Part shown: positions 3,841 to 52,761 of the stretch, in pieces
Position numbering within the stretch: the first letter of the stretch is position 1
How the letters are laid out: every line of letters begins with the position of its first letter
Origin: a virus
Taxonomy: Duplodnaviria; Heunggongvirae; Uroviricota; Caudoviricetes
Direction: 5' to 3' (one strand)
DNA: 64,000 nt
Virus record (IMG/VR): IMGVR_UViG_3300035517_000267
Location: 67,521 to 131,520 of that record
The notes under the pieces: generated by a model
The model's input: only the letters and a program-made list of their open reading frames with translations
Database searches by the model: none
What the model was told of the DNA's origin: nothing
Program-made: the position numbers and the translations under genes

Positions 3841-5675
3841 ACTAATTGTTGACTACAATCTTCGCTATCATGCAGATCAAACTGTGTTACAATGTCTCCA
3901 TTAGGCACTTTCATTAAGGCGGTTGATTTTGTAAAAGGTTCATCTACAAAAATAACTCCACCAGCGTGCTCTCCGACGCGACATACCAAGCCTTCTATCT
4001 TCTGTGCGACTTCCCAAACTTCAGGATAGTCATTAGTCATGGCATTAACAAAAGTGGGAATTGGTTTAAATCCTTTTTCTTCGTCTCCATAGAAACATTC
4101 TTTAAGTGTGCGGGTTTGCCCTCTATCAGCAGGAATAAGAGACGCAAGATAAAGACCTACATCACTATCTATGCCAAGTCCTCTCGCAGCCGTTTGGATT
4201 GCTGACTTACTTTTTTCAGTTCCAAAAGTAACTACATTAGCCACTCTATCTTGTCCATAAAAATCACGAAGATGTTGGAGCACTTGAGCACGCCTTCCTC
4301 CCTCTATATCGCTATCTATGTCGAGCACAGAAACACGCTCGGGATTCAAAAATCTCCATGAATAGCATTTTGTCTCTTCCCATAATGGATTTATCTGAAT
4401 AATATCGAGCACATATAGCAAGGCAAACCCAACTCCTGAACCACGACCAGGTCCAACTAGAGTTCCTGCATTCCAGCATTCTTCAATCGTCTTTTGAAGA
4501 TTTAAAAAATAAGCACTCCAATGTGTTTTATTTACTTCTGAACTTTTCCAAGTAATTTCAAGATTGCTATTAAGTTCGTCATAAGTTTCTTGATTTTGCA
4601 GTCGAGAGTCTTTCTTTAATTTATCTACAACTGCCCTTGCGAGAATACTATCTCCATCAAAGCTCGATTGAGCGAACGTCCGCAAATAAGGAATTTTTTC
4701 ATACCATTCTTCTTCAATTGTTTTTGTCTCAGGAATTTTCCAGATAAGAGAAGGAATTTTTAGAGGCTTCAAAAGGCTATAATCTTCGCAAGCATCTTTA
4801 ATTTTTCTTATATTCTCATAAGCTGTATTTAGCTGTATCTCTGTAAAATAATCAAAATAAAGCTCTATTTCAGTTGTATCCATTATATAAGTTGTAGCAT
4901 AAAAAGAATCAACTTCTCTTTCACCATCCTGAGAATTAAGAAAAGCTTTGTGAATCGGAGCATCTTCTCTTCGTGTATAGTGAGTATCTGTAGTTATGAT
5001 ATAAGGAATGTTGAGCGTAGAAGAAAGATTAAGAAGGAACTTATTAACTTCTATTTGTTCATCATTTCTGGAAGGCTGCATTTCAAAATAGAAATTACCT
5101 TCTCCAAACAAATGTACCATACTAGTACACCAGTTAATAATTTGTTCATAAACTGTTTCATCATCTGTTATAAGATATTCCAAGATATGTTGCGGAAGCC
5201 AGCCTCCTAGACACGCACTACTTCCTATTACGTTTCCTCTATCTTGTCCTATAATCTCTATAAGATCTTGGTAATAAGTGGGAACCCTCGTCATTCCTCT
5301 TGAAGAATAACTGCGTTCCCATGCTCTTGTTGAAAGTTCTCTTATCTGCTCATGTCCTCTAGCATTTTTTGCTAAAAGAATAAAGTGCCAATACTTATCT
5401 TGTCCAGCAATATAAGTTTCAGGAGATAACCCATCTCGGCAAAGATAAATTTCATTGCCTCTAATAACCTTAAAGTCTGGATGATCTTTCTTTACTTTGC
5501 TATAATACTTTTCAATTTTGACGGCATTACTTATAGTTTCATGCTCGGTAAACGCAATAACTTCATGCCCAAGCTCAATAGCTCGATCTATAGAAGATTC
5601 TATGGTTGAAATGGCGTCGCGTAAGCGCAAATTACTATAATCCGTGTGCCCATGCAATGAACCGGGATAACCCAA
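3822..5675 (-). CDS. dnaE: DNA polymerase III alpha (DnaE-type), 5' exon (PHP domain and N-terminal palm)
   Basis: LHGHTDYS... FTEHE is the PHP domain; NFYFEMQ and GFALLYVLDIIQINPL are DnaE-like. The frame closes at 3822 inside the intron. Confidence 0.8.
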   Translation of the reverse strand: MGYPGSLHGHTDYSNLRLRDAISTIESSIDRAIELGHEVIAFTEHETISNAVKIEKYYSKVKKDHPDFKVIRGNEIYLCRDGLSPETYIAGQDKYWHFILLAKNARGHEQIRELSTRAWERSYSSRGMTRVPTYYQDLIEIIGQDRGNVIGSSACLGGWLPQHILEYLITDDETVYEQIINWCTSMVHLFGEGNFYFEMQPSRNDEQIEVNKFLLNLSSTLNIPYIITTDTHYTRREDAPIHKAFLNSQDGEREVDSFYATTYIMDTTEIELYFDYFTEIQLNTAYENIRKIKDACEDYSLLKPLKIPSLIWKIPETKTIEEEWYEKIPYLRTFAQSSFDGDSILARAVVDKLKKDSRLQNQETYDELNSNLEITWKSSEVNKTHWSAYFLNLQKTIEECWNAGTLVGPGRGSGVGFALLYVLDIIQINPLWEETKCYSWRFLNPERVSVLDIDSDIEGGRRAQVLQHLRDFYGQDRVANVVTFGTEKSKSAIQTAARGLGIDSDVGLYLASLIPADRGQTRTLKECFYGDEEKGFKPIPTFVNAMTNDYPEVWEVAQKIEGLVCRVGEHAGGVIFVDEPFTKSTALMKVPNGDIVTQFDLHDSEDCSQQLVRLLNT

Positions 5676-6426: not shown

Positions 6427-6439
6427 AAACTATCTCCTT

Positions 6440-6476
6440 TCTAATAATATTATACCATATTTTTCTCTATATAGCA
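6440..6476 (-). promoter_or_regulatory. conserved phage promoter (minus strand): extended -10 TATGGTATAAT
   Basis: One of at least 15 copies of the motif. Plus strand reads ...tatatattata(c/t)cata(t)ttttat...aaaaagtaaaaag; minus strand reads TTTACT-17 nt-TGnTATAAT-ATATATAGAAA. Confidence 0.6.
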
Positions 6477-6479
6477 AGC

Positions 6480-8164: not shown

Positions 8165-8200
8165 TATTCCTCCTATTATTATTATACCATATTAAGAAAT
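8165..8200 (-). promoter_or_regulatory. conserved promoter copy
   Basis: Minus strand TATGGTATAAT followed by AGGAGGAATAAAAAGATG. Confidence 0.55.
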
Positions 8201-8330
8201 TTAAATCAATTAATTACTTTAACCTAAAAATTTCTAAAAGTGATTTTAGTTTTGAGGAACGATAAAGGCAGTCATAATCGCTCCGACTGCATATAAAAAA
8301 AATAAGGGGAGCATTTAAGCTCCCCTAGAA

Positions 8331-10918: not shown

Positions 10919-12031
10919 TCATTCCTTTGGTACAATCCTTTCTTTTAATAACTTTTCAAATATTTGCGGACCTGCGTCTATAGGGCTTGCTTTATGAGGG
11001 AGAATCATCTCCTTATCAAATATTGCAGATATTTTAATACTTTGACCATATTTATCATTAATGTGAATAAGTTTACTTTTTAGTCTCTGAAACTCTTTGT
11101 CTCCTATGCACTCAAAATCACGGTCAAATGCAACCACAACTTCTTGTACTCCAATAGATTTTAATAGTTCTATATGATAAGTTGAAATACTACTACCGCA
11201 ACAAGCTACTGAAATATCGTTATCTTGTCCATAATAACTAATATACTGCAAGCACGCTTTTTCTGATTCAAAAATAATTGCCACTCCCGCACGCCTAATA
11301 TTTTCTTTACTATTATTCAAATTATATAAATTAAGACTTAAAGGATGATTATACATTTGTCCTTCTACTATTAAAGGGCGATATTTTCCAAATTTATCTG
11401 CTTCTTCTTGTGCTAAAGTTCTTCCTCTTATTCCAATAAGATTACCTTCCATATCAAAATGAGGAATAGTTATTTGCTCTTTGCCTGGGTAATAACCGAT
11501 TAGATTCTTCTTAATTACCTCATTTGATATACCTTCATCTTCCCAATTAAGTATCCTTGGATAAAGAAATCTAGTAAGAATAACCGGGTCATAACTAGGC
11601 AATTTAGCAAATGAAAAAGAATCTTTGGACTTTTTCTTATATCTACTAAATATTTCCCAACCTATTAAATGCTCTTCTTCTTTTACTTGCTCAACGCCTT
11701 CAAATCCAAAGTATTGTGCAATAAAATTCATGGCGTCATAAAGTTGCCATTCCATATTTTTTTGATTATGTACTACTTTAATACATAATTCAAATATATC
11801 AAATGAAGGTGAACTTGTACATCCAGTAAAACAATAAAAGAGTTGTGAGCCTTCATAATAATAAAGTTTGCGGGAGCCAACCCCTGGAAGATTATGACAT
11901 ATTGTCTGGGAGATTATACCTTGTGAAAAGTATTCAGGCTCCCCGCCCCACATTTCTAATAGGTCGTATATGTTTTCTATTGATAGTTGAGCTTTTAGTT
12001 CATCTTTATTATAAAATTTATTCAATCCCAA
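10919..12031 (-). CDS. dnaG: DNA primase, DnaG-like (zinc finger plus TOPRIM)
   Basis: CHN...CFTGC zinc-binding region and a TOPRIM motif AIIFESEKA...VVVAFDRD. Confidence 0.75.
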   Translation of the reverse strand: MGLNKFYNKDELKAQLSIENIYDLLEMWGGEPEYFSQGIISQTICHNLPGVGSRKLYYYEGSQLFYCFTGCTSSPSFDIFELCIKVVHNQKNMEWQLYDAMNFIAQYFGFEGVEQVKEEEHLIGWEIFSRYKKKSKDSFSFAKLPSYDPVILTRFLYPRILNWEDEGISNEVIKKNLIGYYPGKEQITIPHFDMEGNLIGIRGRTLAQEEADKFGKYRPLIVEGQMYNHPLSLNLYNLNNSKENIRRAGVAIIFESEKACLQYISYYGQDNDISVACCGSSISTYHIELLKSIGVQEVVVAFDRDFECIGDKEFQRLKSKLIHINDKYGQSIKISAIFDKEMILPHKASPIDAGPQIFEKLLKERIVPKE

Positions 12032-12720
12032 GGAGCATCACCATCATCTACAATTACGCGTGTATCCTCTATAGGTACCATTTCTAGTCGCCAGTTAGTA
12101 CAAAATTGCGGTTCTATTCTACAAGTTCCCAAATTTGCGGAACAAAAAAGATAAACTCCCTTATATGCCCCACGACGATTCTTATATATAGATAGTTTGA
12201 TTTTAGGCACTTTAAGATTGGGATTTGCGGCAAGAATTGGAGCGAGTTTTTCAAGGTCTTGAGGAGTAACTTCCAAGAGTATCATCCCCGTGTCAACTCT
12301 GTCTGCGATGCTTTTCGCTCCTCTCAAGAGATTTTGGTCTGGAGTTTCGCTATCTTTATAGTCGGTATTAAGCTGTGTACCCGTCAAAATAAAAACTCCA
12401 TATTGATTAGCTATATCTTTTAACCTAGCAGACAACATAAAAAGTATATTATCTTCTCGAAGCTTGACTCCGCCAGAACGCTTGGATATTTCTTCGAGTA
12501 TCTTGAGTGATGTGTGTATATAATCGAACATATTCCTCCTATGTTTCCATAGGTACTGACTATCTCTTACTTGACAAAATGCCAAGGATACCTTTTCGAG
12601 CCACGTACCAATAGTAGCCCTACTCCGCCGATCCGCGGATAGTCGATACAGGTTAAATTTGGACTTGTTTCCAAGTTTTTCCTCGACAAATATCTCCAAT
12701 TGTAGATTTGCAAATACCAT
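12022..12720 (-). CDS. dnaB: replicative DNA helicase DnaB-like, 3' exon
   Basis: MFDYIHTSLKILEEISKRSGG... ILTGTQLN matches the DnaB IDYLQL...ALSQLNR region. The true exon begins near 12530; the upstream in-frame part of the ORF is intron sequence. Confidence 0.7.
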   Translation of the reverse strand: MVFANLQLEIFVEEKLGNKSKFNLYRLSADRRSRATIGTWLEKVSLAFCQVRDSQYLWKHRRNMFDYIHTSLKILEEISKRSGGVKLREDNILFMLSARLKDIANQYGVFILTGTQLNTDYKDSETPDQNLLRGAKSIADRVDTGMILLEVTPQDLEKLAPILAANPNLKVPKIKLSIYKNRRGAYKGVYLFCSANLGTCRIEPQFCTNWRLEMVPIEDTRVIVDDGDAPWD

Positions 12721-13526
12721 ATTTGTCGATTAATTGTTGGTATGTGAATCCATTTTTTCTATCTATTTTAATTGCACGAACAATTTCTTCATTTAATTTG
12801 GTATGTCTATTTTTCTCAGTAAATACTTCTGGCATAATTGTTTTATATCTAGAGCCAGTCCAAATATTTAGAAAAGAATTATAGTGCATTTTTCCTTCAT
12901 ATAATTCTTTGTAAATCTTACTTGGACTTTCATGCCTAGCATAAGCTTTTCTAAGAAAAATAACCTCATCTTCCGATAATGAAGCGTGAGCTTTCATAAG
13001 CTTTTCTTTTTGTTCCTCTTTCATTGGTTTAGAAGCATTTAATCCACCAGACTCAATATTATATCCATTTGGAATCTAAGTTTTTAAATTAGCAATATAA
13101 TATATTTCTAGTCCATTTAATTCTTCTATTGTTTCGGCTTCTGCTAAAATTTCATATTTAAAATTTTCATAGCCATATTTTCGGAAAGCTCTATGAAGCG
13201 GAGAATTATACTCAGGGTCTTTTTCATTAAAAGCCGTACTTTTATGAGCATTATATCTTTGTCTTGGGTTAATTGTTTGACCCACATATTTTTTCCCATT
13301 AATTAAATTAGTATAACAATAAATGATTCCCATAAAGTAATCATCCTTTCTTTAAAATTATTTCCATTAATATATGAAAATAATCAAAGGTGTTTTGATT
13401 ACTTTTGTCCAAAATTTTTTCCCACGGGATTACCATGCCATTTGGTTTAGGTTTCCCCGTTAGCTAGAATCAAAACTATTCTAACCCCAGTGGTAACTGG
13501 AAAGGTATTACACAGCCCTCGGTTTT
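12541..13526 (-). mobile_element. group I intron in dnaB, carrying a GIY-YIG homing endonuclease
   Basis: DnaB N-terminal and C-terminal halves are separated by about 1 kb. The 3' intron segment at 12538-12660 shares near-identical core blocks with the dnaE intron: cctatgtttccataggtactgactatctcttact, agccctactcc and ggatagtcgatac. Confidence 0.7.
12653..13333 (-). CDS. GIY-YIG homing endonuclease, intron-encoded, with one in-frame TAG
   Basis: The 13076-13333 ORF (GIIYCYTNLINGKKYVGQT) and the 12653-13024 ORF (IPNGYNIESGG... KTWKQV) are in one frame joined by a TAG at 13076-13078. Together they give the complete GIY-YIG plus NUMOD-like architecture seen in the first endonuclease. Confidence 0.65.
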
Positions 13527-14567
13527 TCACTGAGCAATGTAGCGAACATCATGCTCTCTGATGTTCTTCTTTATAATATTTTCTACGTCTTGGAGAGAAA
13601 AGTCGGGCAACGTCTCAACCCAAAGGGGGCTACGAGACAAGATTTCCGCAGCTTTTTTAATTCTTTCTTCTTCTCCTTCAAGATATTGACCATTTAAGAT
13701 ATGTTCTTCATTTACATTTGATAAAAATGCAAGCATCATTGTTTGAATCTCAGTTAAATCTTGTTCAACAGCAATAAAAAGAGTAGGCTGTGCGCTTCCA
13801 TTTCTTATCCAACCAAACTGGTCATGATAAATCTCATTACACGCAAAATTGCAAGCATCGGCAATCATTGAACGTGTTTTGCCAACTCCAGTTGCCGCTG
13901 ACCTAAGATACATTTTGCCAAGTCTTGCTCCGCGAGTTACTGTGTTAATGAGGGGTCCATACATCGGAATACCAATCTCAGGATTCTTCTTTAAATCTTC
14001 AATAAGTCCCAAAATACCATCTCCCGCCTGGTAGCCATCACCTAAGTCATCATTAACATATTTTGTTTTTATTTCATCTATTCTATTATCAATATCTTGG
14101 GCAATAGATGTAATAGAAGTTTTATCAAGCCAATCTTCTTGCTCTTGTTTTTTGTTTGTATTGATAATATTTTCTGGGTCATAAAGATAACTTACATCAA
14201 GCCCATAGTTTGCATAAGCTCTTAGCAAGCTAAATTTTTTCATGCGCATATAATAATAATTAAAGGTTTCTTTCTTAGAAACTTGAGAAGCTTCTGCAAG
14301 ATATTCAACGCCTTTATTCTTATTAAAAATCGCTTCATATTTAGGTCTATTGGCGAGATAATCTATAATAGACTCTATGTTTACCTTACTCCCAGTAAGA
14401 TGTATATTGTAAATTGCTCCAAAAGTTATTTTATGAAAATTTTCAGTAAAATCATCTTCATGTATAACATATTTATCTGTATCATCAAGTATAGAAGAAT
14501 CGTTAAAAACACATCCAATAACCTGCGTTATGGCGGCAAGGTCTATATAACTATTAGGATTAACCAC
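13527..14567 (-). CDS. dnaB: replicative DNA helicase DnaB-like, 5' exon
   Basis: DnaB N-terminal domain followed by Walker A GVGKT. Confidence 0.7.
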   Translation of the reverse strand: MVNPNSYIDLAAITQVIGCVFNDSSILDDTDKYVIHEDDFTENFHKITFGAIYNIHLTGSKVNIESIIDYLANRPKYEAIFNKNKGVEYLAEASQVSKKETFNYYYMRMKKFSLLRAYANYGLDVSYLYDPENIINTNKKQEQEDWLDKTSITSIAQDIDNRIDEIKTKYVNDDLGDGYQAGDGILGLIEDLKKNPEIGIPMYGPLINTVTRGARLGKMYLRSAATGVGKTRSMIADACNFACNEIYHDQFGWIRNGSAQPTLFIAVEQDLTEIQTMMLAFLSNVNEEHILNGQYLEGEEERIKKAAEILSRSPLWVETLPDFSLQDVENIIKKNIREHDVRYIAQ

Positions 14568-15084
14568 TTACATCTTCCTCCTTGTCCAAAAAATCAAAAA
14601 GATTTTTAAAACGCCTTACTGGTTTTCTTCCACTTGCTTTAATGTGTATTTCTCGTGCGGGAAGCACATAATCTTGAAGCTCAATATTTTCATTTTTCTG
14701 CTGTGCTTCCCATATACCATGCCAGTAGGCATATGCTTCCTCGTACACATATGGCGTTATACCAATTCCACCATTCGACTTCTCAAGGTCATTTCCGCAC
14801 ACATCATAAAAATATTTTAGAGTTTTTAAAATTCCTGAATAAGTATATTTTTTATCTTTCACATAGGTATTTATCTGTCTATCAATTTTTTCTGAGATAC
14901 AATTAATTCTAAATAAGTCCTTAATATAATTTTCTAGTTCTTTCTTATCTTTATCCTCTTGGGTTTCTAGAGATTCCGCACAAGAAGCATGAGCATAACG
15001 ATTACTTCTTGGCTTTACATAGGGTTCTTCGTCAGGATTAAACATCTCATTACAATAAAGACATTTAACGAGCCTTTTTGCCAC
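14560..15084 (-). CDS. hypothetical zinc-ribbon protein
   Basis: N-terminal CLYCNEMF...HASCAES zinc ribbon. Confidence 0.4.
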   Translation of the reverse strand: MAKRLVKCLYCNEMFNPDEEPYVKPRSNRYAHASCAESLETQEDKDKKELENYIKDLFRINCISEKIDRQINTYVKDKKYTYSGILKTLKYFYDVCGNDLEKSNGGIGITPYVYEEAYAYWHGIWEAQQKNENIELQDYVLPAREIHIKASGRKPVRRFKNLFDFLDKEEDVSG

Positions 15085-15108
15085 TACTTCTCACTCCTTC
15101 CCTAAAGT

Positions 15109-15143
15109 TTATATAAATATTATATCACATTTTAATAAAAAAA
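15109..15143 (-). promoter_or_regulatory. conserved promoter copy
   Basis: Plus strand tatataaatattatatcacattttaataaaaaaag, next to a terminator hairpin. Confidence 0.55.
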
Positions 15144-15172
15144 GCAAGAGAGGGAGATTTCTCTCCCTCTCA
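15144..15172 (-). terminator. rho-independent terminator
   Basis: agagagggagatttctctccctct hairpin. Confidence 0.55.
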
Positions 15173-15178
15173 TCTTCT

Positions 15179-15736
15179 TTAACCCTTTATAAGTTCTTCC
15201 AAGTCTGTAGCAATCAAGTCCATAAGCTCAGCTTGCTCGGGGGTACAATCGCTAACTTTTCGCCCCTTACCAAGATAACGCTCAATAATTGAGGTAATCT
15301 TAGCTGCGTTAGACTGATTTGCACTCATAAGATCTCCAATAAGATTCTGAATCTTTTCAGCAAGAGCCTGATAATCATATTCTTTTGGAGCTGCAAACTC
15401 AGCTCTTTCTGTAGTAATATACTTTCCATTTGTTGCTTTTGCTTCTGCATCAATTGCGGCATTAAGAGCATTAACAAGTGCATTATAAGAAAAATCTATT
15501 TCAGGAGCGATATATTTAAATCTACAGCCACAACGAACACTATTATCCTCAGACCTAAGTGTAAGAACAGGCTTATAGGTTCCATCAGGCATAGCTTTTG
15601 GATGAGCATAGGCTATTATATCACTCATATTTTCTATTATCGAAAGCGCAGAACTCTGCATAGAAGAACCAATCTGTTGATATTCAGTGCCATTCTGAGG
15701 TTTAATTGTTTTTTCTTTATCGTGACTTATAAACAC
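15179..15736 (-). CDS. probable 3' exon of an AAA_24/Sak4-like recombination ATPase
   Basis: RecA-fold continuation (DIIAYAHPK...) downstream of the P-loop ORF at 16927-17292, separated by a LAGLIDADG-containing insert. Confidence 0.4.
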   Translation of the reverse strand: MFISHDKEKTIKPQNGTEYQQIGSSMQSSALSIIENMSDIIAYAHPKAMPDGTYKPVLTLRSEDNSVRCGCRFKYIAPEIDFSYNALVNALNAAIDAEAKATNGKYITTERAEFAAPKEYDYQALAEKIQNLIGDLMSANQSNAAKITSIIERYLGKGRKVSDCTPEQAELMDLIATDLEELIKG

Positions 15737-16926
15737 AACAGCATATCCCAGCTGAGTTAAAGTCCTAAAAGTTTCCTCGAATTCCTTTTTATATTTTGCC
15801 CCAATAATGTTATCCTAAAGGCTTTTTATCCTCTAGTTCTTACGCTTACTTATTCGCGTAAGTTCAGCATAGCTTTTATCCCCAACACTTGGGGATTGTA
15901 GTCTCGTGGAGAACTATATCAATTAAAGTTTTTTATATCTATAATCTTTTGATATTTTTCTTTCTTTCTTGCCAGGAATAAAGAGTTATCGGTATATAAA
16001 TGCTTAAAGATTTCTTTAGAAGCATTTGTCGAATATTGTAAGATATATAATGTAGAAGTATTACGTTGAAAAGAGTGAACATTTACTTTTGGAATATCAT
16101 ATTCCTCATAAAAAAAGTCTACAATCCATTCAAGAATTTCTTTAGTTGCAGATGTAATCTGCCAACTCAAAGTATTATAATTATTAGAAAGAAGAGTTAT
16201 ACTCCCATCGCCATCAAAAAAACCTCTAATATAATCAATCCAATATTTTCTATCTAAGCTTAATGGTGGCTTTAGCTTAAAGGTTTTTTGTGGAATCACG
16301 CCATACTTGGCTAAATCTTTTTTATGTTGTTCGCTTGACCATTGAATTTTGCTAACTTGATAACCAGCTTGAGTAATATAATCTTTAACTTCGGACTTCA
16401 AACCAATTTCTTGACGAATCTTTTCAAGAATCTCTCTATCTACTGTACTCAAACTAAGTTTAACTACATTCCTATCTTTCTCAATGCTACCATCGGCAGC
16501 CAAAAAACCAACAAGCCAAGCCATATTATGATTTTCTTCGCTAAAATAATTCTGCTTTTCTAGCAGATTTCTGCCTTTATTCGCAGCTACAATAGCTTCA
16601 TGTCGATTTCTTAATTTATAACCATTCTTTTCTAAGACTTCTTTGAGTTGAGGCAAAGTTATTTTTGCAGCAGCCATTACTGCCGCTTGCCCTCTCCCAT
16701 TTTCAATATACTCCTTTAGAACAATTTTCTCTTGCTCTTCCGTAAATGAGTTTTTTGTATTCACACTGAACACACTCCTTAAAACTAAAACTTTAATTGT
16801 TTAATTTCTCTATGCGTTGCGCGTGTTAAAGCTTTTAGACTTTAACTTCCGCTCTGGTTAGCATTTCAGCTTTCCAGGTTTTTACTACAATTTTGATATG
16901 AATTACTTCATAAAAGACCAAGCATT
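15737..16926 (-). mobile_element. putative group I intron with a LAGLIDADG homing endonuclease inside the Sak4-like ATPase gene
   Basis: A Walker A/B N-terminal half and a C-terminal half are separated by 1.2 kb holding a double-motif LAGLIDADG ORF. The flanks contain GC-rich hairpins and an AGACUA element. Confidence 0.45.
15919..16773 (-). CDS. LAGLIDADG homing endonuclease (double-motif)
   Basis: LVGFLAADGS and IRGFFDGDGS motifs. Confidence 0.8.
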   Translation of the reverse strand: MFSVNTKNSFTEEQEKIVLKEYIENGRGQAAVMAAAKITLPQLKEVLEKNGYKLRNRHEAIVAANKGRNLLEKQNYFSEENHNMAWLVGFLAADGSIEKDRNVVKLSLSTVDREILEKIRQEIGLKSEVKDYITQAGYQVSKIQWSSEQHKKDLAKYGVIPQKTFKLKPPLSLDRKYWIDYIRGFFDGDGSITLLSNNYNTLSWQITSATKEILEWIVDFFYEEYDIPKVNVHSFQRNTSTLYILQYSTNASKEIFKHLYTDNSLFLARKKEKYQKIIDIKNFN

Positions 16927-17292
16927 TTAGCCATTATTCGACCATCCGCCGTCTCCAATGTTTTCTATCCCCAGCTGATTACAAACATATTTCTGACACA
17001 TATCAGCGGCTAGGTCTGCGGTATCAATTATAATGCTTTTATAAACTTCCTTAACCTCAGATTTCTTAAGCTCTCTAAGAACTTGCTTCATATCTCCCCA
17101 AGATGTGATATCTTGTACCATGACCCCAGGTAGTGCGTTGTAACCACGCTCGAATGCTAGTATCAAATGACCAGGCATCTGAGAACCAAAAGTCGTCTTA
17201 CCAATCTTTGCAGGTCCAAATAAAAAAGTAATATAGCCAGATAGATCGCGACTTACACTATGAGGCTGAATATTTAAAAGGTTGATAGCCAT
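16927..17292 (-). CDS. AAA_24/Sak4-like ATPase, 5' exon (Walker A and Walker B)
   Basis: GPAKIGKTT and SIIIDTAD motifs; the 121-aa ORF stops right after Walker B, which reads as truncated. Confidence 0.5.
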   Translation of the reverse strand: MAINLLNIQPHSVSRDLSGYITFLFGPAKIGKTTFGSQMPGHLILAFERGYNALPGVMVQDITSWGDMKQVLRELKKSEVKEVYKSIIIDTADLAADMCQKYVCNQLGIENIGDGGWSNNG

Positions 17293-17347: not shown

Positions 17348-18277
17348 TTAAAACTTGTACTCGCCCTCAGTAGGCTTTGCGAAAGCCGACGGAGTAGAAT
17401 TCTTACTAGCACGATAAGTATCGCTACGCTGCTTGATTTCCGCAAGATGGATCTCTCGTGCGGCGATCATCTCAGACAGCTCAGAAGCAAGAAGTGTGCT
17501 TTCATCATCCCAAAGATAAGGCTCAGGCTGCGCCCAAGTAATAACAAATGCCTTCTGAGTATTAGTAACCTCGCGCACACTAATCTCACCCCAAGCGCTT
17601 GCTTCCTCTATCTTCTTCTTTACAACCCTAGAGATTTCCTGCCCCTTCACCTTAGTAAAGACGGGCTGCTTCTGCGTAGCCTCAAGTCCCTCAAAATAAT
17701 CAATTGCTGCCGGATTGGTAACAGTAAACTCGACAGGAAGAAGCATCTTGGGATAACCAAAAATACAGCCCTTGACTATGCCTGTATCCGGCTGATCCTC
17801 AGTCTCCTTACGAGAAAAATTAGTAATAACCATATCTGCTTCAAAAGTAGATCGACTATCAGGCTCACTAAATGTATCAATAGGATGAATAAATCCACCC
17901 TCATTGCGCTTTGTGCTTACAAGCGGTTCACCCTCAACACGATAATTGTACCACTCGTTAAGAGCAATTGCAGAATCTACTCTAAGCTTCGCAGCATTCT
18001 CCTTACCAGCGCCCATAACTGTCTTGGTGGTACCGTCAAGTATGCTCTGAAGAATTGCATAGTTACCATTTACACGAGGTGCATCATTCGGATTCTTCTG
18101 AGGATAATACTCTGCAACATAGGTATAATGAACAGTAACTATATTGGTATCATCTGTTGCAATACTAATATCACCAGAGATATAAGGAATATTCTTGGCA
18201 CTTACCTTGCTCTTAAGATTATGCTCATAGAGATAACCCTCAAGATGAACTGTGTTTATAAAATTCTTCTTACTCAT
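17348..18277 (-). CDS. possible single-stranded DNA-binding protein (T7 gp2.5-like); GC-rich gene
   Basis: Sits next to the Sak4-like ATPase; acidic C-terminal tail ending in an aromatic residue (...EGEYKF). The assignment is tentative. Confidence 0.3.
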   Translation of the reverse strand: MSKKNFINTVHLEGYLYEHNLKSKVSAKNIPYISGDISIATDDTNIVTVHYTYVAEYYPQKNPNDAPRVNGNYAILQSILDGTTKTVMGAGKENAAKLRVDSAIALNEWYNYRVEGEPLVSTKRNEGGFIHPIDTFSEPDSRSTFEADMVITNFSRKETEDQPDTGIVKGCIFGYPKMLLPVEFTVTNPAAIDYFEGLEATQKQPVFTKVKGQEISRVVKKKIEEASAWGEISVREVTNTQKAFVITWAQPEPYLWDDESTLLASELSEMIAAREIHLAEIKQRSDTYRASKNSTPSAFAKPTEGEYKF

Positions 18278-18629
18278 TCGTAATATTCTCCTTAATAATA
18301 AAATTCATACCTTTTTCTGTAATCAAGTAATTTACAGGGTTAGTTCCATTCTTTTCAACAAATCCTTCTGTAACAAGCTTTCGCATTGCACCAGAAATCT
18401 TTCTAGATGATTCTCCCATTTCATCTGCTATATCTTTTGCTTTTATAGATTTAAAACCATAATTCTGCAAAAACTCAAGAATCGCAGCGCCAGTTTCTGT
18501 GATAATAGGAGCTTCCGCCTTATCTTCATACGAGGCAAGTTCATTATAAATTTTCATTACGCCACTAGGAATATCATTTTCTCCAACTATAGTATCAAAA
18601 TAATCCAGAAATTCTTTGTATTTATTCAC
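18270..18629 (-). CDS. hypothetical protein
   Basis: ORF with the conserved promoter upstream. Confidence 0.4.
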   Translation of the reverse strand: MNKYKEFLDYFDTIVGENDIPSGVMKIYNELASYEDKAEAPIITETGAAILEFLQNYGFKSIKAKDIADEMGESSRKISGAMRKLVTEGFVEKNGTNPVNYLITEKGMNFIIKENITNE

Positions 18630-18650: not shown

Positions 18651-18685
18651 TTTCTATATATATTATATCATTTTAATTAATTTTT
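18651..18685 (-). promoter_or_regulatory. conserved promoter copy
   Basis: Plus strand ttctatatatattatatcattttaattaattttt. Confidence 0.55.
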
Positions 18686-19474
18686 GTCAATGAATATAAA
18701 TTCCTTAGAATAAGGTAAAGATTGAGCAAATGAAATGAAATCTTTTGACCATTCTGTTAACTTGTGTTTTTGACGCTGATGTACCATAGAAAGAAGATTC
18801 TCATAATTCATAGTAATTGTACGAGTTTGAAGCCAGCTCATAGGCAACCATCTCACAAGCTCTTTCCAATACTTTTTCGCTTCAATAGGATTTTCGTCTT
18901 TAAGAAGTAAATATTTTTGACGAAGTTGTTCCAAGTCATTAATAAAATTGTCAACTCTAATCCCTACATTTATATCATCTATTAAAGGAAGTTCATTGTT
19001 ATAATTAGTAGTTTCAAAACAATCAATTGTAATAGGCTTAGAAGTAAGCTTGTGCATAGTTGAAGTACTATTAGCCACGGTGCCTATTTTATAGGTACTT
19101 GCTTCTTTCCACCAGTAAATTGGTGCTGTGATGTCAACAGTCACGAATATTTGTCTCAAAAACTTACGATGTTCACTACCAGCATTTATGAGATTTTGCG
19201 CTAACTTCATATCCTTTGGACCGATCGCCGCAAACTCCCAAATATCTTTATCATGGTGAAGAAGAATATTTTTCTCAATAGCCGCATAATCTTCATTGGT
19301 CATAGGAACATCTTCTCCATGATACGCAATCCACATTTCAGAAACAATATCAGGAATAGAATTGTATAAGCACATCCCAAAATTGCTATCGCTTAGATGC
19401 CAACTATTTTTAGGATTGCGCATACCCCGAAGAGCGTGTTCAAAATTATAGACTCTAATATTCTCAAATTTCAT
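18677..19474 (-). CDS. hypothetical protein
   Basis: 265-aa ORF, no recognisable motif. Confidence 0.4.
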   Translation of the reverse strand: MKFENIRVYNFEHALRGMRNPKNSWHLSDSNFGMCLYNSIPDIVSEMWIAYHGEDVPMTNEDYAAIEKNILLHHDKDIWEFAAIGPKDMKLAQNLINAGSEHRKFLRQIFVTVDITAPIYWWKEASTYKIGTVANSTSTMHKLTSKPITIDCFETTNYNNELPLIDDINVGIRVDNFINDLEQLRQKYLLLKDENPIEAKKYWKELVRWLPMSWLQTRTITMNYENLLSMVHQRQKHKLTEWSKDFISFAQSLPYSKEFIFIDKN

Positions 19475-20720: not shown

Positions 20721-20996
20721 TTACTCTTCTGCCTTCTCAGCGGGAGCATCCGGGTCAACCGTCATGCCCAGCTCAGTCAGACGAAGGAACTTAATCTTCT
20801 GATGCGAGCCATCTGCCAGCTCGATCTCCTTCTCCTCGCGATAACCCCAATCCTTCTTGACAAAGGAAGTAAAGCTACCATTAACCTTGCGGGTATCAAA
20901 ACCCAGCTCCTCAGCGACGCTAATCGCGGTAATATCCTCTCCGTTATGCTTACGGATGTACTCAAAAATTGTCTTAGTATCGGGCTTCATTGCCAT
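20721..20996 (-). CDS. hypothetical protein in a GC-rich patch
   Basis: 91-aa ORF; a strong hairpin terminator lies downstream at 20691-20716. Confidence 0.4.
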   Translation of the reverse strand: MAMKPDTKTIFEYIRKHNGEDITAISVAEELGFDTRKVNGSFTSFVKKDWGYREEKEIELADGSHQKIKFLRLTELGMTVDPDAPAEKAEE

Positions 20997-21450
20997 TGTT
21001 AATTTTCTCCTTTAAATAATTGTTGTTGTATTATTTCATCTATTTCTAAAAACAGATTCATCCCATCTTTTAAAGCTAGAATTTGATTAGTTAACTAAAT
21101 TATTCTATTTTCGGCTTGAGATTTTTCCTCTTTTGTACTGGTTTCGCTTTGATGAATCAATTCGCATTTATACATTTCCTATGCGTATTTCTTCATTTGC
21201 TTTCTGGTCATTTCAAAAAACAACCTTTCCTTATTGATTACAAGTATATTATAGCAAAAAATTTTTTTAAAGTCAATCAATCTTCTCTTATAATCATTTG
21301 CGCAATTTGTTCTCTTGGAATATAGAAATCACAAGTTTCTGTTTTGCTTTTTATGGTAAGCCAGTTTCCGCCCGCCATCAAATTAATATCATAATCGTCA
21401 TAAGAATAAGTTCCACGCGAACCATCTATATAATCTACTTTAGCGTACAT

Positions 21451-23420: not shown

Positions 23421-23463
23421 TACTTATATATATTATATAATATTTTTATTAAAAAGTAAAAAG
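23421..23463 (-). promoter_or_regulatory. conserved promoter copy
   Basis: Plus strand tacttatatatattatataatatttttattaaaaagtaaaaag. Confidence 0.6.
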
Positions 23464-23492
23464 AGGGTGGAAAACCCCACCCTCTAGTTTTT
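23464..23492 (-). terminator. rho-independent terminator
   Basis: agggtggaaaaccccaccct hairpin with a T-run on the minus strand. Confidence 0.6.
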
Positions 23493-27799: not shown

Positions 27800-27836
27800 T
27801 TTCTATGTATATTATATCATATTTTAAAAACAAATG
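27800..27836 (-). promoter_or_regulatory. conserved promoter copy
   Basis: Plus strand tttctatgtatattatatcatattttaaaaac. Confidence 0.55.
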
Positions 27837-27877
27837 CAATCAAAAAACAAAAAAGAGATTAATGATTACTCGAACCA

Positions 27878-28384
27878 TTAATCTCCCTGTATGATTTCTT
27901 CAGGCTTAATTTGACCCGTTGCTAATTTATCCGCTAACTCATTCCAAATATTTCCATTATGACCTTTAACATAATATAATTCAATATGCTTATTATTAAA
28001 GCTAGTTAAAATATCATATTTCTGAATTAAGTCTAAATTCTCAAGCGGCGCCCCTCCCGCACGAGTCCATCCATTGCGTTTCCACCCCTTAATCCACTTG
28101 GTAAAGCTATTAACACAATACATAGAATCACTATAAACAAGAGGATAAGGAAATGAATTGGAAGGACTTCCATAATTTTCCAGCGCCCAGAGTATTGCAC
28201 TCATTTCCATTCTATTATTAGTTGTACCTTCTGCGCGCTCCGCATATGCAGCTATTAACTTATACTCTTCTGGCTTTTGCTGTAAATTGCCCTCGCATAC
28301 TACAACTCCAAAACCGCCAACCGCATTTTTAGAACCATTTTTTAAAGTAGAACCATCTGTATATATAATAATTATTTTTTTCAC
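27878..28384 (-). CDS. rnhA: ribonuclease HI
   Basis: IYTDGS, NNRMEMSA and YVKGHNGNIWNELADKLA RNase H motifs. Confidence 0.8.
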   Translation of the reverse strand: MKKIIIIYTDGSTLKNGSKNAVGGFGVVVCEGNLQQKPEEYKLIAAYAERAEGTTNNRMEMSAILWALENYGSPSNSFPYPLVYSDSMYCVNSFTKWIKGWKRNGWTRAGGAPLENLDLIQKYDILTSFNNKHIELYYVKGHNGNIWNELADKLATGQIKPEEIIQGD

Positions 28385-28466
28385 CTTCTTTTTTTATTTA
28401 TTATAACATATTATAGATAAAAAGAAAAAGGGATTAATAGTAAAAACTACTAATCCCTTGTAATTA

Positions 28467-29539: not shown

Positions 29540-30799
29540 TCACCCTCTCATTAGTTCGGCACGCTCGGCAATCCTAGATCTATGACATTGCTTAAGCGTT
29601 ACTTCACCATAATAGCTTTGACCTCTAAATACTTTAGAAGCCTTAATTAATCCATTATTATTGTTTTTATAAACATCTAGATCAACTTGAGTGCGGTCAT
29701 CGCCTTCTATGATACAAATACAATTCTCTCCAATTCGTTGAAGAATAAGTTGCATTGTATCAATTGTAGTATTCTGAGCTTCCGTTACATAAACGCCAGC
29801 TCTAACATTTATATCCATTCCTCTACAATCAGAGACGGGAATCAGTTCAATTTTTCCTTCGTTAATTAATCTTTCAATAGCTTCAATTCCACCAAACTTT
29901 CCTACGAGGAAATTGCCAATTTGTGAATCAAGCAGTTTCGTATTTTTATCACCCGGATAAAATCCGAGCTTAACTGAGTCTCTAGTTGCTACAGGGTTGC
30001 AAAAAATTATAATTTTATCAATACGATTTTTCTCAAGTTGTTGAACGAGATAAGCCATGGCTATATATGACTTTCCACTTCCAGCTTTTCCACGAATAAT
30101 TGTGAATTGGTTATTAGATAAGCTATCAAACAAAAGCTTCTGATAAGGGTCATTCTTATAAGGCTTAACCTTCCCAAACCAGTTTGAATTAAAGTCCTCA
30201 TAATCAAGGTAATCATGACTACTACCTGACCATTTCCGCAAATCCAATATTTCACCATCAATACTTCGCAATATTAAATACTCACCTATCAAGAGGTTAA
30301 AGTGATTATAATTTATATCTTGGTAAAATTTGGTAAGAACCTCATCATTTGCATATATCTCTTTATAACCTGTATATTCATCATTATTTTGTGCGGCTTC
30401 TTCTATCATCCCATCTCCGAAAAACAGCTATGCAATATTCGCTAAAGAAAAATCATTAGTAACAAATATTACTTTATCAGGATGAATAAAATTATTCGCA
30501 TAAATGGCATCGCTTAATATCCTTGTATCATCTGTTATCGTGAGAAACTTTTCTCGAATGGTATTTTCCATATTTTCAGTATGAATTATTAAATCATACA
30601 ATTCTATATTTTCTCTAAGCCATTTAAGAATTTGTCTGGCTAAATATTTAGTATCAGAATCTTTTGTAGAAGAAACCTTTATTCTTTCCAATTCATTAAG
30701 CGTAATAGAAGAAATCATTATTTTTTCTTCTGGCATTTGTTCTCCCAAGGCTAAAAGAGCACTTGTGTCATAGAAACGAATGTCATGTTCCATAGTCAT
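29540..30799 (-). CDS. phoH: PIN-PhoH fusion ATPase (YlaK-like) with an in-frame TAG at the domain junction
   Basis: The PIN ORF (30428-30799) ends at TAG 30428-30430 and the PhoH ORF (GKAGSGKS) follows in the same frame six codons later. PIN-PhoH is a known single-polypeptide architecture. Confidence 0.7.
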
Positions 30800-31527: not shown

Positions 31528-31626
31528 ATTTTTATTCTCCCTTATTTCTTATAATTTAATTATACTTAAAAATTTTTATTATGTCAATATTAGAAATGCC
31601 CTAGGCTTTTGACCTAGGGCTTCTAT

Positions 31627-34214: not shown

Positions 34215-34240
34215 GACTCATATCTCCTTTTCTTTATCTT

Positions 34241-34281
34241 TTATATATACATTATATCATATTTTAAGAAAAAAGTAAAAA
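34241..34281 (-). promoter_or_regulatory. conserved promoter copy
   Basis: Plus strand tatatatacattatatcatattttaagaaaaaagtaaaaag. Confidence 0.6.
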
Positions 34282-36723: not shown

Positions 36724-36779
36724 TCTCCTTTTATTTATTATACCATAAAATATGATAAAAAGAAAATAGAAGAAAGCTT

Positions 36780-37130
36780 TTAGCCTTCTTCTATCTTGCT
36801 TACGAGATACAAATCAGTTTCTTCATAGTAGTCTAAAATTTCATAATATTTTCCAAGCTCTTCCGGAGAAGTATCTTCATCTAGTTTTACCAAATACAGC
36901 TCATAAATATGGTTATAACTTTTGAAATAACAAAAAGTTGTAATTAACCAACAAATGGAACTAGTAATTGTAAGTATCATAGAACCACCAAAACAACACA
37001 ATATAATTTGCGCAATCTCAAGCATAGTTATAATTGTATAAAGCATTTTGCTAAGGGGAGATGGTTGATGTATCATCCATGAAAGAGTTTTTATTATAGT
37101 CATTGTTATTCCTCTCTTACTATTAACCAA
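36780..37130 (-). CDS. membrane protein
   Basis: Two hydrophobic helices. Confidence 0.4.
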   Translation of the reverse strand: MVNSKRGITMTIIKTLSWMIHQPSPLSKMLYTIITMLEIAQIILCCFGGSMILTITSSICWLITTFCYFKSYNHIYELYLVKLDEDTSPEELGKYYEILDYYEETDLYLVSKIEEG

Positions 37131-38217: not shown

Positions 38218-38262
38218 ATTTTCTATATATATTATACCATATTTTTATAAAAAATAAAAAAG
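38218..38262 (-). promoter_or_regulatory. conserved promoter copy
   Basis: Plus strand tttctatatatattataccatatttttataaaaaataaaaaag. Confidence 0.6.
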
Positions 38263-38389: not shown

Positions 38390-38504
38390 AAAGGTATATG
38401 AAAACTAAGAGATAGAAAAACGAACGATATTAAATCGCCTAGAGTAAAAGACTTCTCTTAGGTAAATAGTCTTTTGTTCTATTATGGAAAAGGTAGTGCT
38501 TCAA

Positions 38505-38600
38505 ACATCCCCAGGCAAGAGATTTGAACTTTTACGCTAAACGCGTCTATCAATCAGCTTATAACCGTTCTGATACCGGAAGAGTCCCTAATTTCTATGG
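38505..38600 (-). ncRNA. tRNA-like remnant sharing the T-arm and acceptor 3' half with tRNA-Ser; no complete cloverleaf
   Basis: AAAAGTTCAAATCTCTTGCCTGGGG matches the tRNA-Ser T arm, but no complementary 5' acceptor strand or canonical anticodon arm was found. Confidence 0.25.
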
Positions 38601-38677
38601 CGCTCCCCTCTCACGAGCGCATATAGCTAGATAACAACTGCTATTCCATCGAGTTTTTATGAGTTTTCTTTCTCAAT

Positions 38678-38720
38678 TTCTATATATATTATATCATAAT
38701 TTTATAAAAAAGTAAAAAAG
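38678..38720 (-). promoter_or_regulatory. conserved promoter copy
   Basis: Plus strand tttctatatatattatatcataattttataaaaaagtaaaaaag. Confidence 0.6.
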
Positions 38721-39258: not shown

Positions 39259-39417
39259 ATCTTACCTCCTAGGGTATGGCGGCGGGGGACGGTACTGACC
39301 CGTCTTCCAAGCTTTTAGAGAGCCTTGCATTACCTTTATGCTACCCCGCATTTTCTAATTCTATTATACAGGAAAAATTTCATAAAGTCAAAAAAAAGAG
39401 AGGGTTTATTCCCTCTC

Positions 39418-39858
39418 TTAGAAAATAGCTTCTTCAAAGCCGTCTCGTTCAGTTCTATAAGGCTTGATGGTATTACAAAGTATATTCAAACAAATTTGCA
39501 TCAATACTTTAATTTTTTGTGAAGTTTCATCTATTGCCAAAGCTTCTAAAAGAGTATCACAAACGCTACAACTTCCATAACTAATCCACGTCATAAGATA
39601 ATCTTCGTGCGTAGGCTGGTAAGTCTCAAAAGGAAGAAGATAAAGCAACGTACCTTGATAATCTCCATTATCTATCTCAGTAATTCCGTCTATATAGATA
39701 TTATAAGCTTCCCAGCTTTCATCATTATAAACTCGTTCAAAAGCAATTTCAACTAGATCTTTGTAAGTTATATAGTCATTCTCCAACAAATGTTGAGACA
39801 AGGCATATTCCAATTTATCTTTGTTCCTGTCCCATTTCTCCTTGATAATATTTAGCAT
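39418..39858 (-). CDS. hypothetical protein
   Basis: 146-aa ORF, no recognisable motif. Confidence 0.4.
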   Translation of the reverse strand: MLNIIKEKWDRNKDKLEYALSQHLLENDYITYKDLVEIAFERVYNDESWEAYNIYIDGITEIDNGDYQGTLLYLLPFETYQPTHEDYLMTWISYGSCSVCDTLLEALAIDETSQKIKVLMQICLNILCNTIKPYRTERDGFEEAIF

Positions 39859-40973: not shown

Positions 40974-41015
40974 TTTCTATATATATTATAATATATTTTT
41001 ATAAAAAAGTAAAAA
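40974..41015 (-). promoter_or_regulatory. conserved promoter copy
   Basis: Plus strand ttttctatatatattataatatatttttataaaaaagtaaaaaag. Confidence 0.6.
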
Positions 41016-41039
41016 AGCTCTCTGTTGCCAGAGAGCTTA
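41014..41039 (-). terminator. rho-independent terminator
   Basis: agctctctgttgccagagagct hairpin. Confidence 0.55.
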
Positions 41040-47088: not shown

Positions 47089-47269
47089 TGGTAGTCGGTA
47101 CGGGATTCGAACCCGTGACTTCAGCGTTGGAACTAAAAATAAGATTTGAACTTACATCTTTGACCACTCTTCGTCTGAATAAAATCTTATTTCAAATTCA
47201 AAAAGTCAATATTTTTCTTTAAACTATTTTAGCGAAAGGCTGATGACTTAACCTCTTGTCGAACCGACC
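47089..47269 (-). tRNA. tRNA-Glu (UUC) gene interrupted in the anticodon loop by a 106-nt tRNA-like insert (47128-47233)
   Basis: 5' half GGTCGGTTCGACAAGAGGTTAAGTCATCAGC-CTTTC, and 3' half AC-GCTGAAGTCACGGGTTCGAATCCCGTACCGACTACCA. Acceptor (7 bp), D arm, anticodon stem TCAGC/GCTGA, a 4-nt variable loop, canonical T loop TTCGAAT and CCA are all present. The predicted spliced loop CTTTCAC reads UUC. Confidence 0.55.
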
Positions 47270-47687: not shown

Positions 47688-47774
47688 TGGTGCGAGCGGC
47701 GGGACTCGAACCCGCACGTCCTTGTGGACACGAGATTTTAAGTCTCGGGTGTCTACCACTTCCACCACGCTCGC
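47688..47774 (-). tRNA. tRNA-Leu (UAA), type II
   Basis: GCGAGCGTGGTGGAAGTGGTAGACACCCGAGACTTAAAATCTCGTGTCCACAAGGACGTGCGGGTTCGAGTCCCGCCGCTCGCACCA; anticodon loop CTTAAAA; long variable arm; CCA encoded. Confidence 0.8.
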
Positions 47775-48387: not shown

Positions 48388-48461
48388 GGCAGTCCCTACT
48401 CGTGACGATCGAGTACCCTCTGATTCAAAGTCAGATGTGCAGTCCGCTACACCAAGGGACT
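48388..48461 (-). tRNA. tRNA-Gln (UUG)
   Basis: AGTCCCTTGGTGTAGCGGACTGCACATCTGACTTTGAATCAGAGGGTACTCGATCGTCACGAGTAGGGACTGCCA. Perfect 7-bp acceptor, anticodon loop CTTTGAA, CCA encoded; the T loop ATCGTCA is non-canonical. Confidence 0.6.
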
Positions 48462-48519
48462 ATATTGTGAGCCAGTTTAATGTCATAGCTCAGGACGGGA
48501 GGTGATTATAATTATGACT

Positions 48520-51053: not shown

Positions 51054-51055
51054 TA

Positions 51056-52759: not shown

Positions 52760-52761
52760 AA

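Follow-up and report, generated by a model that had tools for sequence, protein, structure and literature searches.

A 64-kb stretch of phage genome (positions 67,521 to 131,520 of IMG/VR record IMGVR_UViG_3300035517_000267; hereafter the window, to which all site counts refer) carries about 21 copies of a short minus-strand element, first noticed at 23421-23492 ahead of an NAD-dependent DNA ligase gene. These copies are very probably ordinary promoters of the host RNA polymerase, of the housekeeping-sigma (sigma-A, extended -10) kind; about half of them stand behind a terminator, and the conserved box that follows the -10 hexamer would be the region where transcription starts. They appear to drive the replication, accessory and tRNA genes of the phage. 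At the site first reported, which lies on the minus strand, the hairpin AGAGGGTGGggttttCCACCCTCT (23485-23462) is followed by a T-run that leads into TTTACT (23460-23455), a 17-nt spacer, TATAAT (23437-23432) and ATATATAAG. Its two parts are:

23421-23460 (-): predicted promoter P23437, TTTACT-17-TATAAT-ATATATAAGTA; predicted start A at 23425; ribosome-binding site, then the ligase ATG at 23400
23462-23485 (-): predicted intrinsic terminator, 10-bp stem with 6 GC, 3' of a topoisomerase II subunit gene; its T-run merges with the P23437 -35

An array of putative sigma-A-type promoters

The motif is present at all 15 positions at which it had been reported (TATAAT starts at 6454, 8186, 15124, 18667, 23437, 27816, 28405, 34256, 36742, 38236, 38693, 40990, 56880, 59810 and 60465) and at six more of the same class (21253, 31564, 39368, 41692, 48534 and 48623), for a total of about 21. 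Each site lies on the minus strand, between genes and co-oriented with them, and each has an exact TATAAT with exactly 17 nt between it and the -35 hexamer. The -35 hexamers themselves span a range from TTGACA (six of six matches) to TTTTCT (three of six), with TT invariant at the first two positions. A position matrix built from the sites gives about 20 minus-strand hits above 12 bits, compared with a mean of 1.2 and a maximum of 5 in 50 shuffles; TATAATATATATAG, with up to two mismatches, occurs 25 times where 3.4 occurrences are expected; and TGNTATAAT is found 19 times on the minus strand and four times on the plus strand. Intergenic DNA accounts for 15% of the window.

Geometry, orientation, placement and the conservation of these sites at the same junctions in relatives all support the original prediction that they are extended -10 promoters of a sigma-A type, although the consensus first given for them, TTTACT-17-TG(G/A)TATAAT, holds only in part. 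Its TATAAT and 17 nt stand, but the literal string TTTACT-N16-18-TGRTATAAT has no match, and the 17-nt count has to extend from the -35 as far as TATAAT, TGR included. The corrected consensus is TT(G/T)AYW-17 nt (ending TATGR)-TATAAT-ATATATAGAAA, in which the spacer consists of a T-tract and then an A-tract. Upstream of the -10, T is found at -3 in 15 of the 15 listed sites and G at -2 in 12, giving TATG; the TG is present at 12 of these 15 and at 13 of all 21. As a general -35, TTTACT fails: it occurs at four of the 15 sites, with TTTACA at 59810, and the remaining sites have TTGACA, TTGATT, TTGCTA, TTGCAT or weaker T-rich hexamers. TTTACT describes only a sub-class of the promoters, the one that is fused to a terminator T-run.

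We propose that the holoenzyme of the host housekeeping RNA polymerase (sigma-A, of the sigma-70 family) reads these promoters through a -35 element TT(G/T)AYW, a 17-nt spacer ending in a '-16' TATG, the TATAAT hexamer and an all-A/T discriminator, ATATAT. Transcription would begin at the A seven nt after the -10, giving an RNA that starts AGAAA. The leader, short (13-30 nt) and rich in A, would end at a strong Shine-Dalgarno sequence or lead straight into a tRNA, and the box would stay close to what is optimal for easy melting and for starting with a purine. With the start set at this position-7 A, the leaders ahead of genes are mostly 25-30 nt long and end at a strong Shine-Dalgarno sequence and start codon. 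At about half of the sites the T-run of the preceding unit's intrinsic terminator would run into the -35, which would account for the TTTACT variant, and with a terminator and a promoter at many junctions the non-structural genome would be cut into many short, separately initiated units. The exact start nucleotide and the strength of each promoter are predictions from sequence. Within the window the sites keep to those parts that carry replication, nucleotide-metabolism, accessory and tRNA genes, and it is this gene content that would suggest early or middle expression.

Predicted terminators at the promoter junctions

The promoters had been described as 'usually' lying behind a GC hairpin and T-run. 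The hairpins are there, but a strong one abuts the -35 at eight of the 15 listed sites (11-12 of all 21), or just over half. These 11-12 minus-strand hairpins, with stems of 9-16 bp and a T-run, lie between a stop codon and the next -35 and are predicted to be intrinsic terminators; the strongest on the minus strand are those that abut a -35. GC-rich stems followed by a T-run number 23 in the 20-40 kb interval and 21 in the 40-60 kb interval, as against 8.9 and 10.8 in shuffles.

When 11 of the terminator-promoter junctions are aligned, the only columns without variation are those of the -35 and -10 regions; the stems show no homology. The similarity among copies is therefore that of a shared functional consensus and not that of a copied cassette. 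Pairwise identity over 58 nt ranges from 38 to 81% and is mostly 43-70%; the most alike pairs are P40990 and P38693 (81%), P23437 and P34256 (76%), and the two copies near 48.5 kb (76% over 58 nt, with 38 nt identical).

Conservation in relatives and occurrence elsewhere

Relatives were compared as loci with flanks of up to 10 kb. A set of 42 IMG/VR loci anchored on the ligase gene (L120-L161), which is unbiased as to the motif, contains 74 non-redundant TTKnnn-14-TGnTATAAT sites with the downstream consensus A(78%) T(75%) w w w T(76%) A(88%) t A A. Promoters stand at the same junctions as in the window, ahead of orthologues of the regulator-like, topoisomerase and ligase genes and of gene 14560-15084, where the flanking proteins are 28-56% identical; such sites are frequent ahead of the topoisomerase and ligase orthologues. 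A promoter of this architecture, with an extended -10, precedes the orthologue of gene 18270-18629 in 16 of the 21 distinct sequences from relatives (protein identity 33-51%); the remaining five were too divergent for the marker used. At the P15124 junction the promoter is found in six of the seven relatives examined, and the seventh (L107) has a hairpin and T-run only. At the ligase junction the terminator-promoter pair is present, partial or absent, and the hairpins found at any one junction differ in sequence from relative to relative. The TAGAAA seen in the window recurs in some lineages (L130, L131 and L140); most have TATAAG or TATAAA.

The exact 20-mer TGRTATAATATATATAGAAA occurs at no fewer than 119 IMG/VR loci and at 120 or more loci in bacterial genomes and metagenome-assembled genomes; among the matches listed, 65 of the former and 31 of the latter share proteins with the window, and most have a TTGAyw hexamer at the right distance. 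Although the identity of TGATATAATATATATAGAAA at the junctions retrieved in this way is striking, it provides no independent evidence, because the loci were selected for the 20-mer. Bona fide chromosomes carry the same 20-mer as well: in Mycoplasma sp. 654, Melainabacteria MEL.A1 and Anaerosphaera multitolerans it stands 8-43 nt upstream of open reading frames (ORFs) whose translations, of 255-480 aa, look like ordinary proteins. Its spread across low-GC bacteria and phages marks it as a generic strong promoter and therefore not as a signature of this phage. We also considered the 20-mer as a mark of rRNA or other special host promoters and rejected this, given five bacterial loci with neither rRNA nor tRNA downstream.

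Ahead of orthologues of gene 20721-20996 in eight of the relatives (L120, L121, L122, L127, L131, L133, L140 and L152), the promoter is followed by a conserved 65-75-nt leader that starts CATAAGCTAArAG...GCTTA, with a short hairpin at its very 5' end. This leader may be a conserved element of the 5' untranslated region; the leader of P21253 in the window is shorter and different.

The box downstream of the -10

The box covers positions +1 to +11 after the -10, with the columns A-T-A-T-A-T-A-G-A-A-A. Position 7 is A in 15 of the 15 listed sites (p = 2e-7 against intergenic composition) and in 19 of 21 overall, position 6 is T in 12 of 15 (18 of 21), and position 8 is G in nine of 15. Exact ATATATAG is found at five of the 15 sites, the others having one to three mismatches. 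Of its 11 minus-strand occurrences, six adjoin TATAAT (five of these at listed promoters) and the other five share no common context. The longer TATATAGAAA occurs five times in the window, every time in register after TATAAT, so that the box cannot be regarded as an element apart from the core promoter. Promoters of the sigma-70 type normally start at position 7 and prefer a pyrimidine at -1 and a purine at +1; T at 6 and A at 7 would be compatible with a purine start 6-8 nt downstream of the -10.

The ATATATAG box had been thought unusual. However, it falls in the place of the discriminator, the start and the first transcribed bases, it is degenerate in relatives, and the 20-mer is found in bacterial chromosomes. 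Because of its fixed register, the degenerate copies in relatives and the same 20-mer in low-GC bacteria, we suggest that the box is most likely the melting region or discriminator together with the start site and initial transcript, and not a separate operator.

Alternative explanations

Several points weigh against ordinary host promoters as the full account. The -35 is poor in several copies (TTTTAT, TTTCTT and TTTTCT), which are possibly weak; the inspection covers 64 kb of the genome; and the loci retrieved by the exact 20-mer (L001-L119 and L162-L281) are biased to box conservation. In addition, most relatives conserve +1 to +11 less strongly than this genome does (position 8 is G here and mostly T there), and basal sigma-A contacts are not known to require such conservation, so that an extra factor is possible. 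One such factor would be a phage or host regulator for which ATATATAG(AAA) is an operator, bound across the start sites to repress or boost all of the promoters together, for example in an early-to-late switch, with the winged-helix protein of 18270-18629 as the candidate. The G at position 8 (nine of 15, against 19% background G) and the A at positions 9-11 (11-13 of 15) do go beyond the known needs of sigma-A; the preference for TAGAAA in this lineage and TATAAG or TATAAA in most relatives looks as if it co-varies with a lineage-specific factor; and the regulator-like gene itself lies under the best-matching promoter, and an extended -10 promoter precedes its orthologue in the 16 of 21 sequences described above. 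Yet all five copies of TATATAGAAA keep register with the -10, the box is no more dyad-symmetric than any run of alternating A and T, and the identical 20-mer lies ahead of ordinary chromosomal genes, where no phage factor is present, among its at least 120 loci in unrelated low-GC bacteria. The best-conserved bases, T6 and A7, are moreover those expected from the pyrimidine/purine start rule, and we regard an operator as unlikely. Similarly unlikely is the proposal that the uniform start region (all-A/T discriminator, A7, G8 and AAA) is a regulatory device, either the target of a phage factor or an ATP/GTP-sensing start. Were it true, a phage factor would allow all non-structural units to be silenced at once as translation shifts to the TAG-recoded late genes, and nucleotide sensing would couple early transcription to the energy or stringent state of the host; in either version the suppressor tRNA and ROOL RNA described below, behind the same promoter type, would be co-regulated.

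Some large phages, among them AR9 and phiKZ, use A/T-rich promoters for their own polymerases, and the sites described here might likewise be read by a phage-encoded sigma factor or a phage RNA polymerase of A/T-rich specificity. The canonical -35, 17-nt spacer, TG and TATAAT are, however, the hallmark of a housekeeping sigma, and the same sequence precedes bacterial chromosomal genes. No RNA polymerase or sigma family was matched among the roughly 50 window proteins scanned, and a Pfam search of ten small ORFs at 39-62 kb gave nothing relevant to transcription; we consider this explanation so improbable as to carry almost no weight. A different kind of alternative concerns the origin of the array. 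Arbiol, Comeau and Krisch reportedly described, in 2010, the promoter-early stem-loop (PeSL) cassettes of T4-type phages. The window resembles this system in that a host-type early promoter is coupled to a stem-loop in many copies between small non-structural genes of a large phage, and its modules could be mobile or recombinogenic cassettes of the same sort, alike through copying and through recombination that shuffles the flanking genes. The high identity of P40990 with P38693 (81%) and of the 48.5-kb pair would fit, as would the GGGTGG/CCACCC stem shared by P23437 and P34256 and the variation at the ligase junction of relatives, which have a terminator and promoter, a hairpin only, or nothing. 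But PeSL copies are near-identical, which would allow recombination, whereas the hairpins of the window are non-homologous among copies. Over 58 nt of A/T-rich DNA, identity is only 43-70% for most pairs, and the promoter parts are mostly 45-70% identical; roughly half of the promoters lack a hairpin altogether, and no recombination junctions were observed. Among the relatives' loci, within flanks of at most 10 kb, no indels bounded by the modules were demonstrated. We rejected a recently copied cassette because of the non-homologous hairpins and modest pairwise identity, whole cassettes in the window are not near-identical as those of PeSL are, and in these sequences there is no evidence of cassette-mediated shuffling; we therefore hold mobile cassettes to be very unlikely.

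The gene at 18270-18629 (-) encodes a small winged-helix/MarR-like 'transcriptional regulator' (PHROG 2440, E = 6e-8). Its promoter, P18667, is the only one with a perfect full consensus, TTGACA-17-TGATATAAT-ATATATAGAAA, and most of the relatives examined have kept the gene along with its promoter. The gene product would be the obvious candidate for a phage factor acting on these promoters, should there be one.

Comparison with known promoter sets

Ordinary host-type promoters have parallels in both bacteria and phages. The sigma-A promoters of low-GC Gram-positive bacteria, with their '-16 region' TRTG or extended -10, are said to have been described by Helmann in 1995 and by Voskuil and Chambliss in 1998. 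The window promoters share with them the TATG before TATAAT, a 17-nt spacer that is rich in A and T, as is the discriminator, and a predicted start at a purine about 7 nt past the -10. They differ in density and uniformity, which are phage-like: 64 kb hold 21 near-consensus copies, far more uniform than a set of host promoters. Among documented systems the nearest parallel is found in staphylococcal Herelleviridae (phage K and vB_SauM-515A1), whose early and middle promoters, mapped by RNA-seq, follow the formula TTGACW-17-TRTGN-TATANT (PMC10383478). These are read by the unmodified host polymerase, number dozens per genome, and alternate with hairpin-polyT terminators that delimit short units; the motif is absent from the late genes, which use another (PMC10383478). 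The promoter formula and the interleaved hairpin and polyT terminators are the same in the window. In contrast to the Herelleviridae set, the putative promoters of the window are more uniform in the discriminator and around the start (ATATATAGAAA), and the T-run of a terminator is often fused with the -35.

The promoter set is an ordinary kind of feature, and it is the phage carrying it that is new. For a phage lineage without a cultured representative, the map of promoters and terminators is an aid to annotation and outlines the likely transcription units, and it supplies a ready-made consensus for strong sigma-A promoters in low-GC hosts.

Predicted promoters and terminators of the window

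The remaining predicted promoters, named for the position at which TATAAT starts, and predicted intrinsic terminators are listed here; 'unlisted' marks sites beyond the original 15.

6438-6477 (-): P6454, TTGCTA-17(..ATATGG)-TATAAT-ATTATTAGAAA; leader 16 nt; no adjoining hairpin
8170-8209 (-): P8186, TTGATT-17-TATAAT-AATAATAGGAG; nearest terminator at 8326-8305, about 95 nt upstream and non-adjacent
15108-15147 (-): P15124, TTGCTT-17(..ATGTGA)-TATAAT-ATTTATATAAA
15148-15171 (-): terminator, 10-bp stem; abuts the P15124 -35; also scored on the plus strand (bidirectional)
18651-18690 (-): P18667, perfect TTGACA-17(..AAATGA)-TATAAT-ATATATAGAAA; would drive the winged-helix regulator-like gene 18270-18629
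21237-21276 (-): P21253 (unlisted), TTGACT-17(..TTTTGC)-TATAAT-ATACTTGTAAT
27800-27839 (-): P27816, TTGCAT-17-TATAAT-ATACATAGAAA; would drive the topoisomerase II large subunit gene
27852-27888 (-): terminator, 16-bp stem; upstream of P27816
28389-28428 (-): P28405, weak -35, TTTTCT-17(..ATATGT)-TATAAT-AAATAAAAAAA; would drive the RNase H gene
28428-28459 (-): terminator, 14-bp stem; abuts P28405
31548-31587 (-): P31564 (unlisted), TTGACA-17-TATAAT-TAAATTATAAG
31598-31620 (-): terminator, 10 nt upstream of the P31564 -35
34240-34279 (-): P34256, TTTACT-17(..ATATGA)-TATAAT-GTATATATAAA
34276-34305 (-): terminator, 13-bp stem with GGGTGG/CCACCC core; overlaps the P34256 -35
36726-36765 (-): P36742, weak -35, TTTCTT-17(..TTATGG)-TATAAT-AAATAAAAGGA; leader 13 nt
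36763-36797 (-): terminator, 16-bp stem; overlaps the P36742 -35
38220-38259 (-): P38236, TTTTAT-17(..ATATGG)-TATAAT-ATATATAGAAA; top matrix score, 38 bits
38263-38290 (-): terminator, directly 3' of tRNA-Ser (38389-38297); abuts P38236
38677-38716 (-): P38693, TTTACT-17(..TTATGA)-TATAAT-ATATATAGAAA; would drive about 290 nt without an ORF, then tRNA-Ser
39352-39391 (-): P39368 (unlisted), TTGACT-17-TATAAT-AGAATTAGAAA; about 5 nt before the amber-suppressor tRNA
39396-39419 (-): terminator, abuts P39368
40974-41013 (-): P40990, TTTACT-17-TATAAT-ATATATAGAAA; without TG
41015-41038 (-): terminator, 10-bp stem; abuts P40990
41676-41715 (-): P41692 (unlisted, weaker), TTGCAA-17-TATAAT-ATATTTGTAAA; after a GC hairpin at about 41754-41724, at the downstream end of a tail-fibre-like block
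48518-48557 (-): tandem copy 2 (48534), TTGAAA-17(..AAAGAG)-TATAAT-ATATATATGAG; about 60 nt upstream of tRNA-Gln
48607-48646 (-): tandem copy 1 (48623), TTGAAA-17-TATAAT-ATATATACAAG; 89 nt upstream of copy 2, 38 nt identical
56864-56903 (-): P56880, TTGATA-17(..TAATGA)-TATAAT-ATATATAGAAA; no adjoining hairpin
59794-59833 (-): P59810, TTTACA-17-TATAAT-ATCTATAGAAA; without TG
60449-60488 (-): P60465, TTGATT-17(..TTATGA)-TATAAT-ATAATAAAGTT; no adjoining hairpin

The late block and TAG recoding

The tail-fibre-like genes occupy 41.9-46.9 kb and 48.9-56.2 kb, and in neither interval did the matrix scan find a promoter of this kind, in agreement with the original prediction that the motif is absent from the late block. 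The 'different repeat' that it placed at 48520-48650 proved to be the same promoter type, TTGAAA-17-TATAAT-ATATATA, present twice, 89 nt apart; a third, degenerate copy lies at 48747-48784. As a late-promoter motif this repeat is ruled out, since its two TTGAAA-17-TATAAT copies stand ahead of tRNA-Gln and the ROOL RNA. In the few intergenic gaps of the tail-fibre blocks we found no convincing shared late-promoter motif.

The minus-strand genes at 48918-56215 form a TAG-recoded block: when TAG is read as sense, minus-strand coding coverage at 48-56 kb rises from about 0.5 to 0.84-0.99. The frames so opened are 53227-55575 (782 aa, 16 TAG), 48918-51053 (711 aa, 5 TAG) and 51056-52093 (345 aa, 3 TAG), and the product of 55559-56215 has tail-fibre-like PHROG matches. 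Host-type promoters are placed to drive the amber-suppressor tRNA and the tRNA/ROOL cluster, and they are missing from the TAG-recoded tail-fibre block. It has been proposed (bioRxiv 10.1101/2021.08.26.457843) that phages with recoding make their suppressor from promoters which the host recognises, ahead of the time when the recoded late genes must be translated, and the distribution of promoters between suppressor and late block fits that proposal. The PhoH-like gene at 29540-30799 (-) consists of two same-frame ORFs split by one in-frame TAG (...SLANIA*LFFGDGMIEE...), with PHROG profile coordinates that continue across it; read-through of TAG is therefore probably used in the 'early' region too, and not only in the tail-fibre block.

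tRNAs and non-coding RNAs

The tRNA at 39277-39350 (-) has the anticodon CTA of an amber suppressor (labelled 'Pyl' by ARAGORN; Rfam tRNA, 41 bits). It has its own predicted terminator (39396-39419) and promoter (39352-39391, AGAATTAGAAA), with a leader of about 5 nt, and because the promoter is of the sigma-A type, the suppressor is probably made by the host polymerase from the same class of promoter as the non-recoded genes. Alignment of this tRNA with the phage tRNA-Gln(TTG), made to trace its origin, gave no informative similarity.

Between tRNA-Gln (48387-48461) and tRNA-Leu (47688-47774), at 47772-48349 (-), there is a full-length ROOL RNA that matches Rfam RF03087 with 322 bits (threshold 99 bits). 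The cluster, which also takes in a 103-nt tRNA-like match at 47131-47233 found by Rfam only and missed by ARAGORN, has the tandem promoters 48534 and 48623 upstream and is closed by a strong predicted terminator at 47030-47009. Behind P38693, about 290 nt at 38390-38681 (-) contain no ORF but GC-rich helices and a tRNA-like T-arm, GTTCAAATCTC. An Rfam scan of this stretch found no family at E <= 0.1 and only known tRNAs; it may be an unknown non-coding RNA or a degenerate tRNA.

The phage and other features of the window

The window has a GC content of about 35%, carries nearly all of its genes on the minus strand and has strong, AGGAGG-type ribosome-binding sites. PHROG matches identify a phage replication and nucleotide-metabolism region, with a split DNA polymerase, Dda-like helicase, RecJ-like exonuclease, primase, DnaB, Sak4, NAD-dependent ligase, two topoisomerase II subunits, RNase H, PhoH, RNA ligase, polynucleotide kinase and amidase. 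Megablast of the window against 50,697 phage records gave no nucleotide match, and the best cultured-phage matches of the DNA polymerase, at 37-39% identity, are in large Enterocloster, Enterococcus and Staphylococcus phages. On these comparisons the phage has no close cultured relative and lies outside the Herelleviridae; IMG/VR holds uncultivated relatives of 110-195 kb, whose ligases are 39-74% identical. The window appears to come from an uncultivated large phage, for which we infer a host among low-GC Gram-positive (Bacillota-type) bacteria.

Three of the replication genes are in two parts. A GIY-YIG/HNH homing endonuclease ORF (2725-3633) separates the two parts of the DNA polymerase gene (3822-5675 and 543-2543), and an endonuclease ORF (15919-16764) separates those of the Sak4-like gene (16927-17292 and 15179-15661); the DnaB gene is divided into 13527-14567 and 12022-12585. 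The gaps at 13330-13530, 15655-15925 and 16760-16930 appear structured, and an Rfam scan at the gathering threshold found no group I intron in them.

Near the other end of the window, the region at 61700-62030 is gene-poor and intergenic, and the GC skew changes sign at about 58-62 kb. The region includes a putative plus-strand promoter, TTTACT-17-TATAAT with TGT (61713-61741), four GC-rich hairpins in a row (about 61790-61940) and a perfect 24-nt tandem repeat of 2.8 copies, ATACTAGCACTTTTTACCTAAACG (61963-62028). Possible identities are a replication origin, a packaging site and the edge of a region of divergent transcription.

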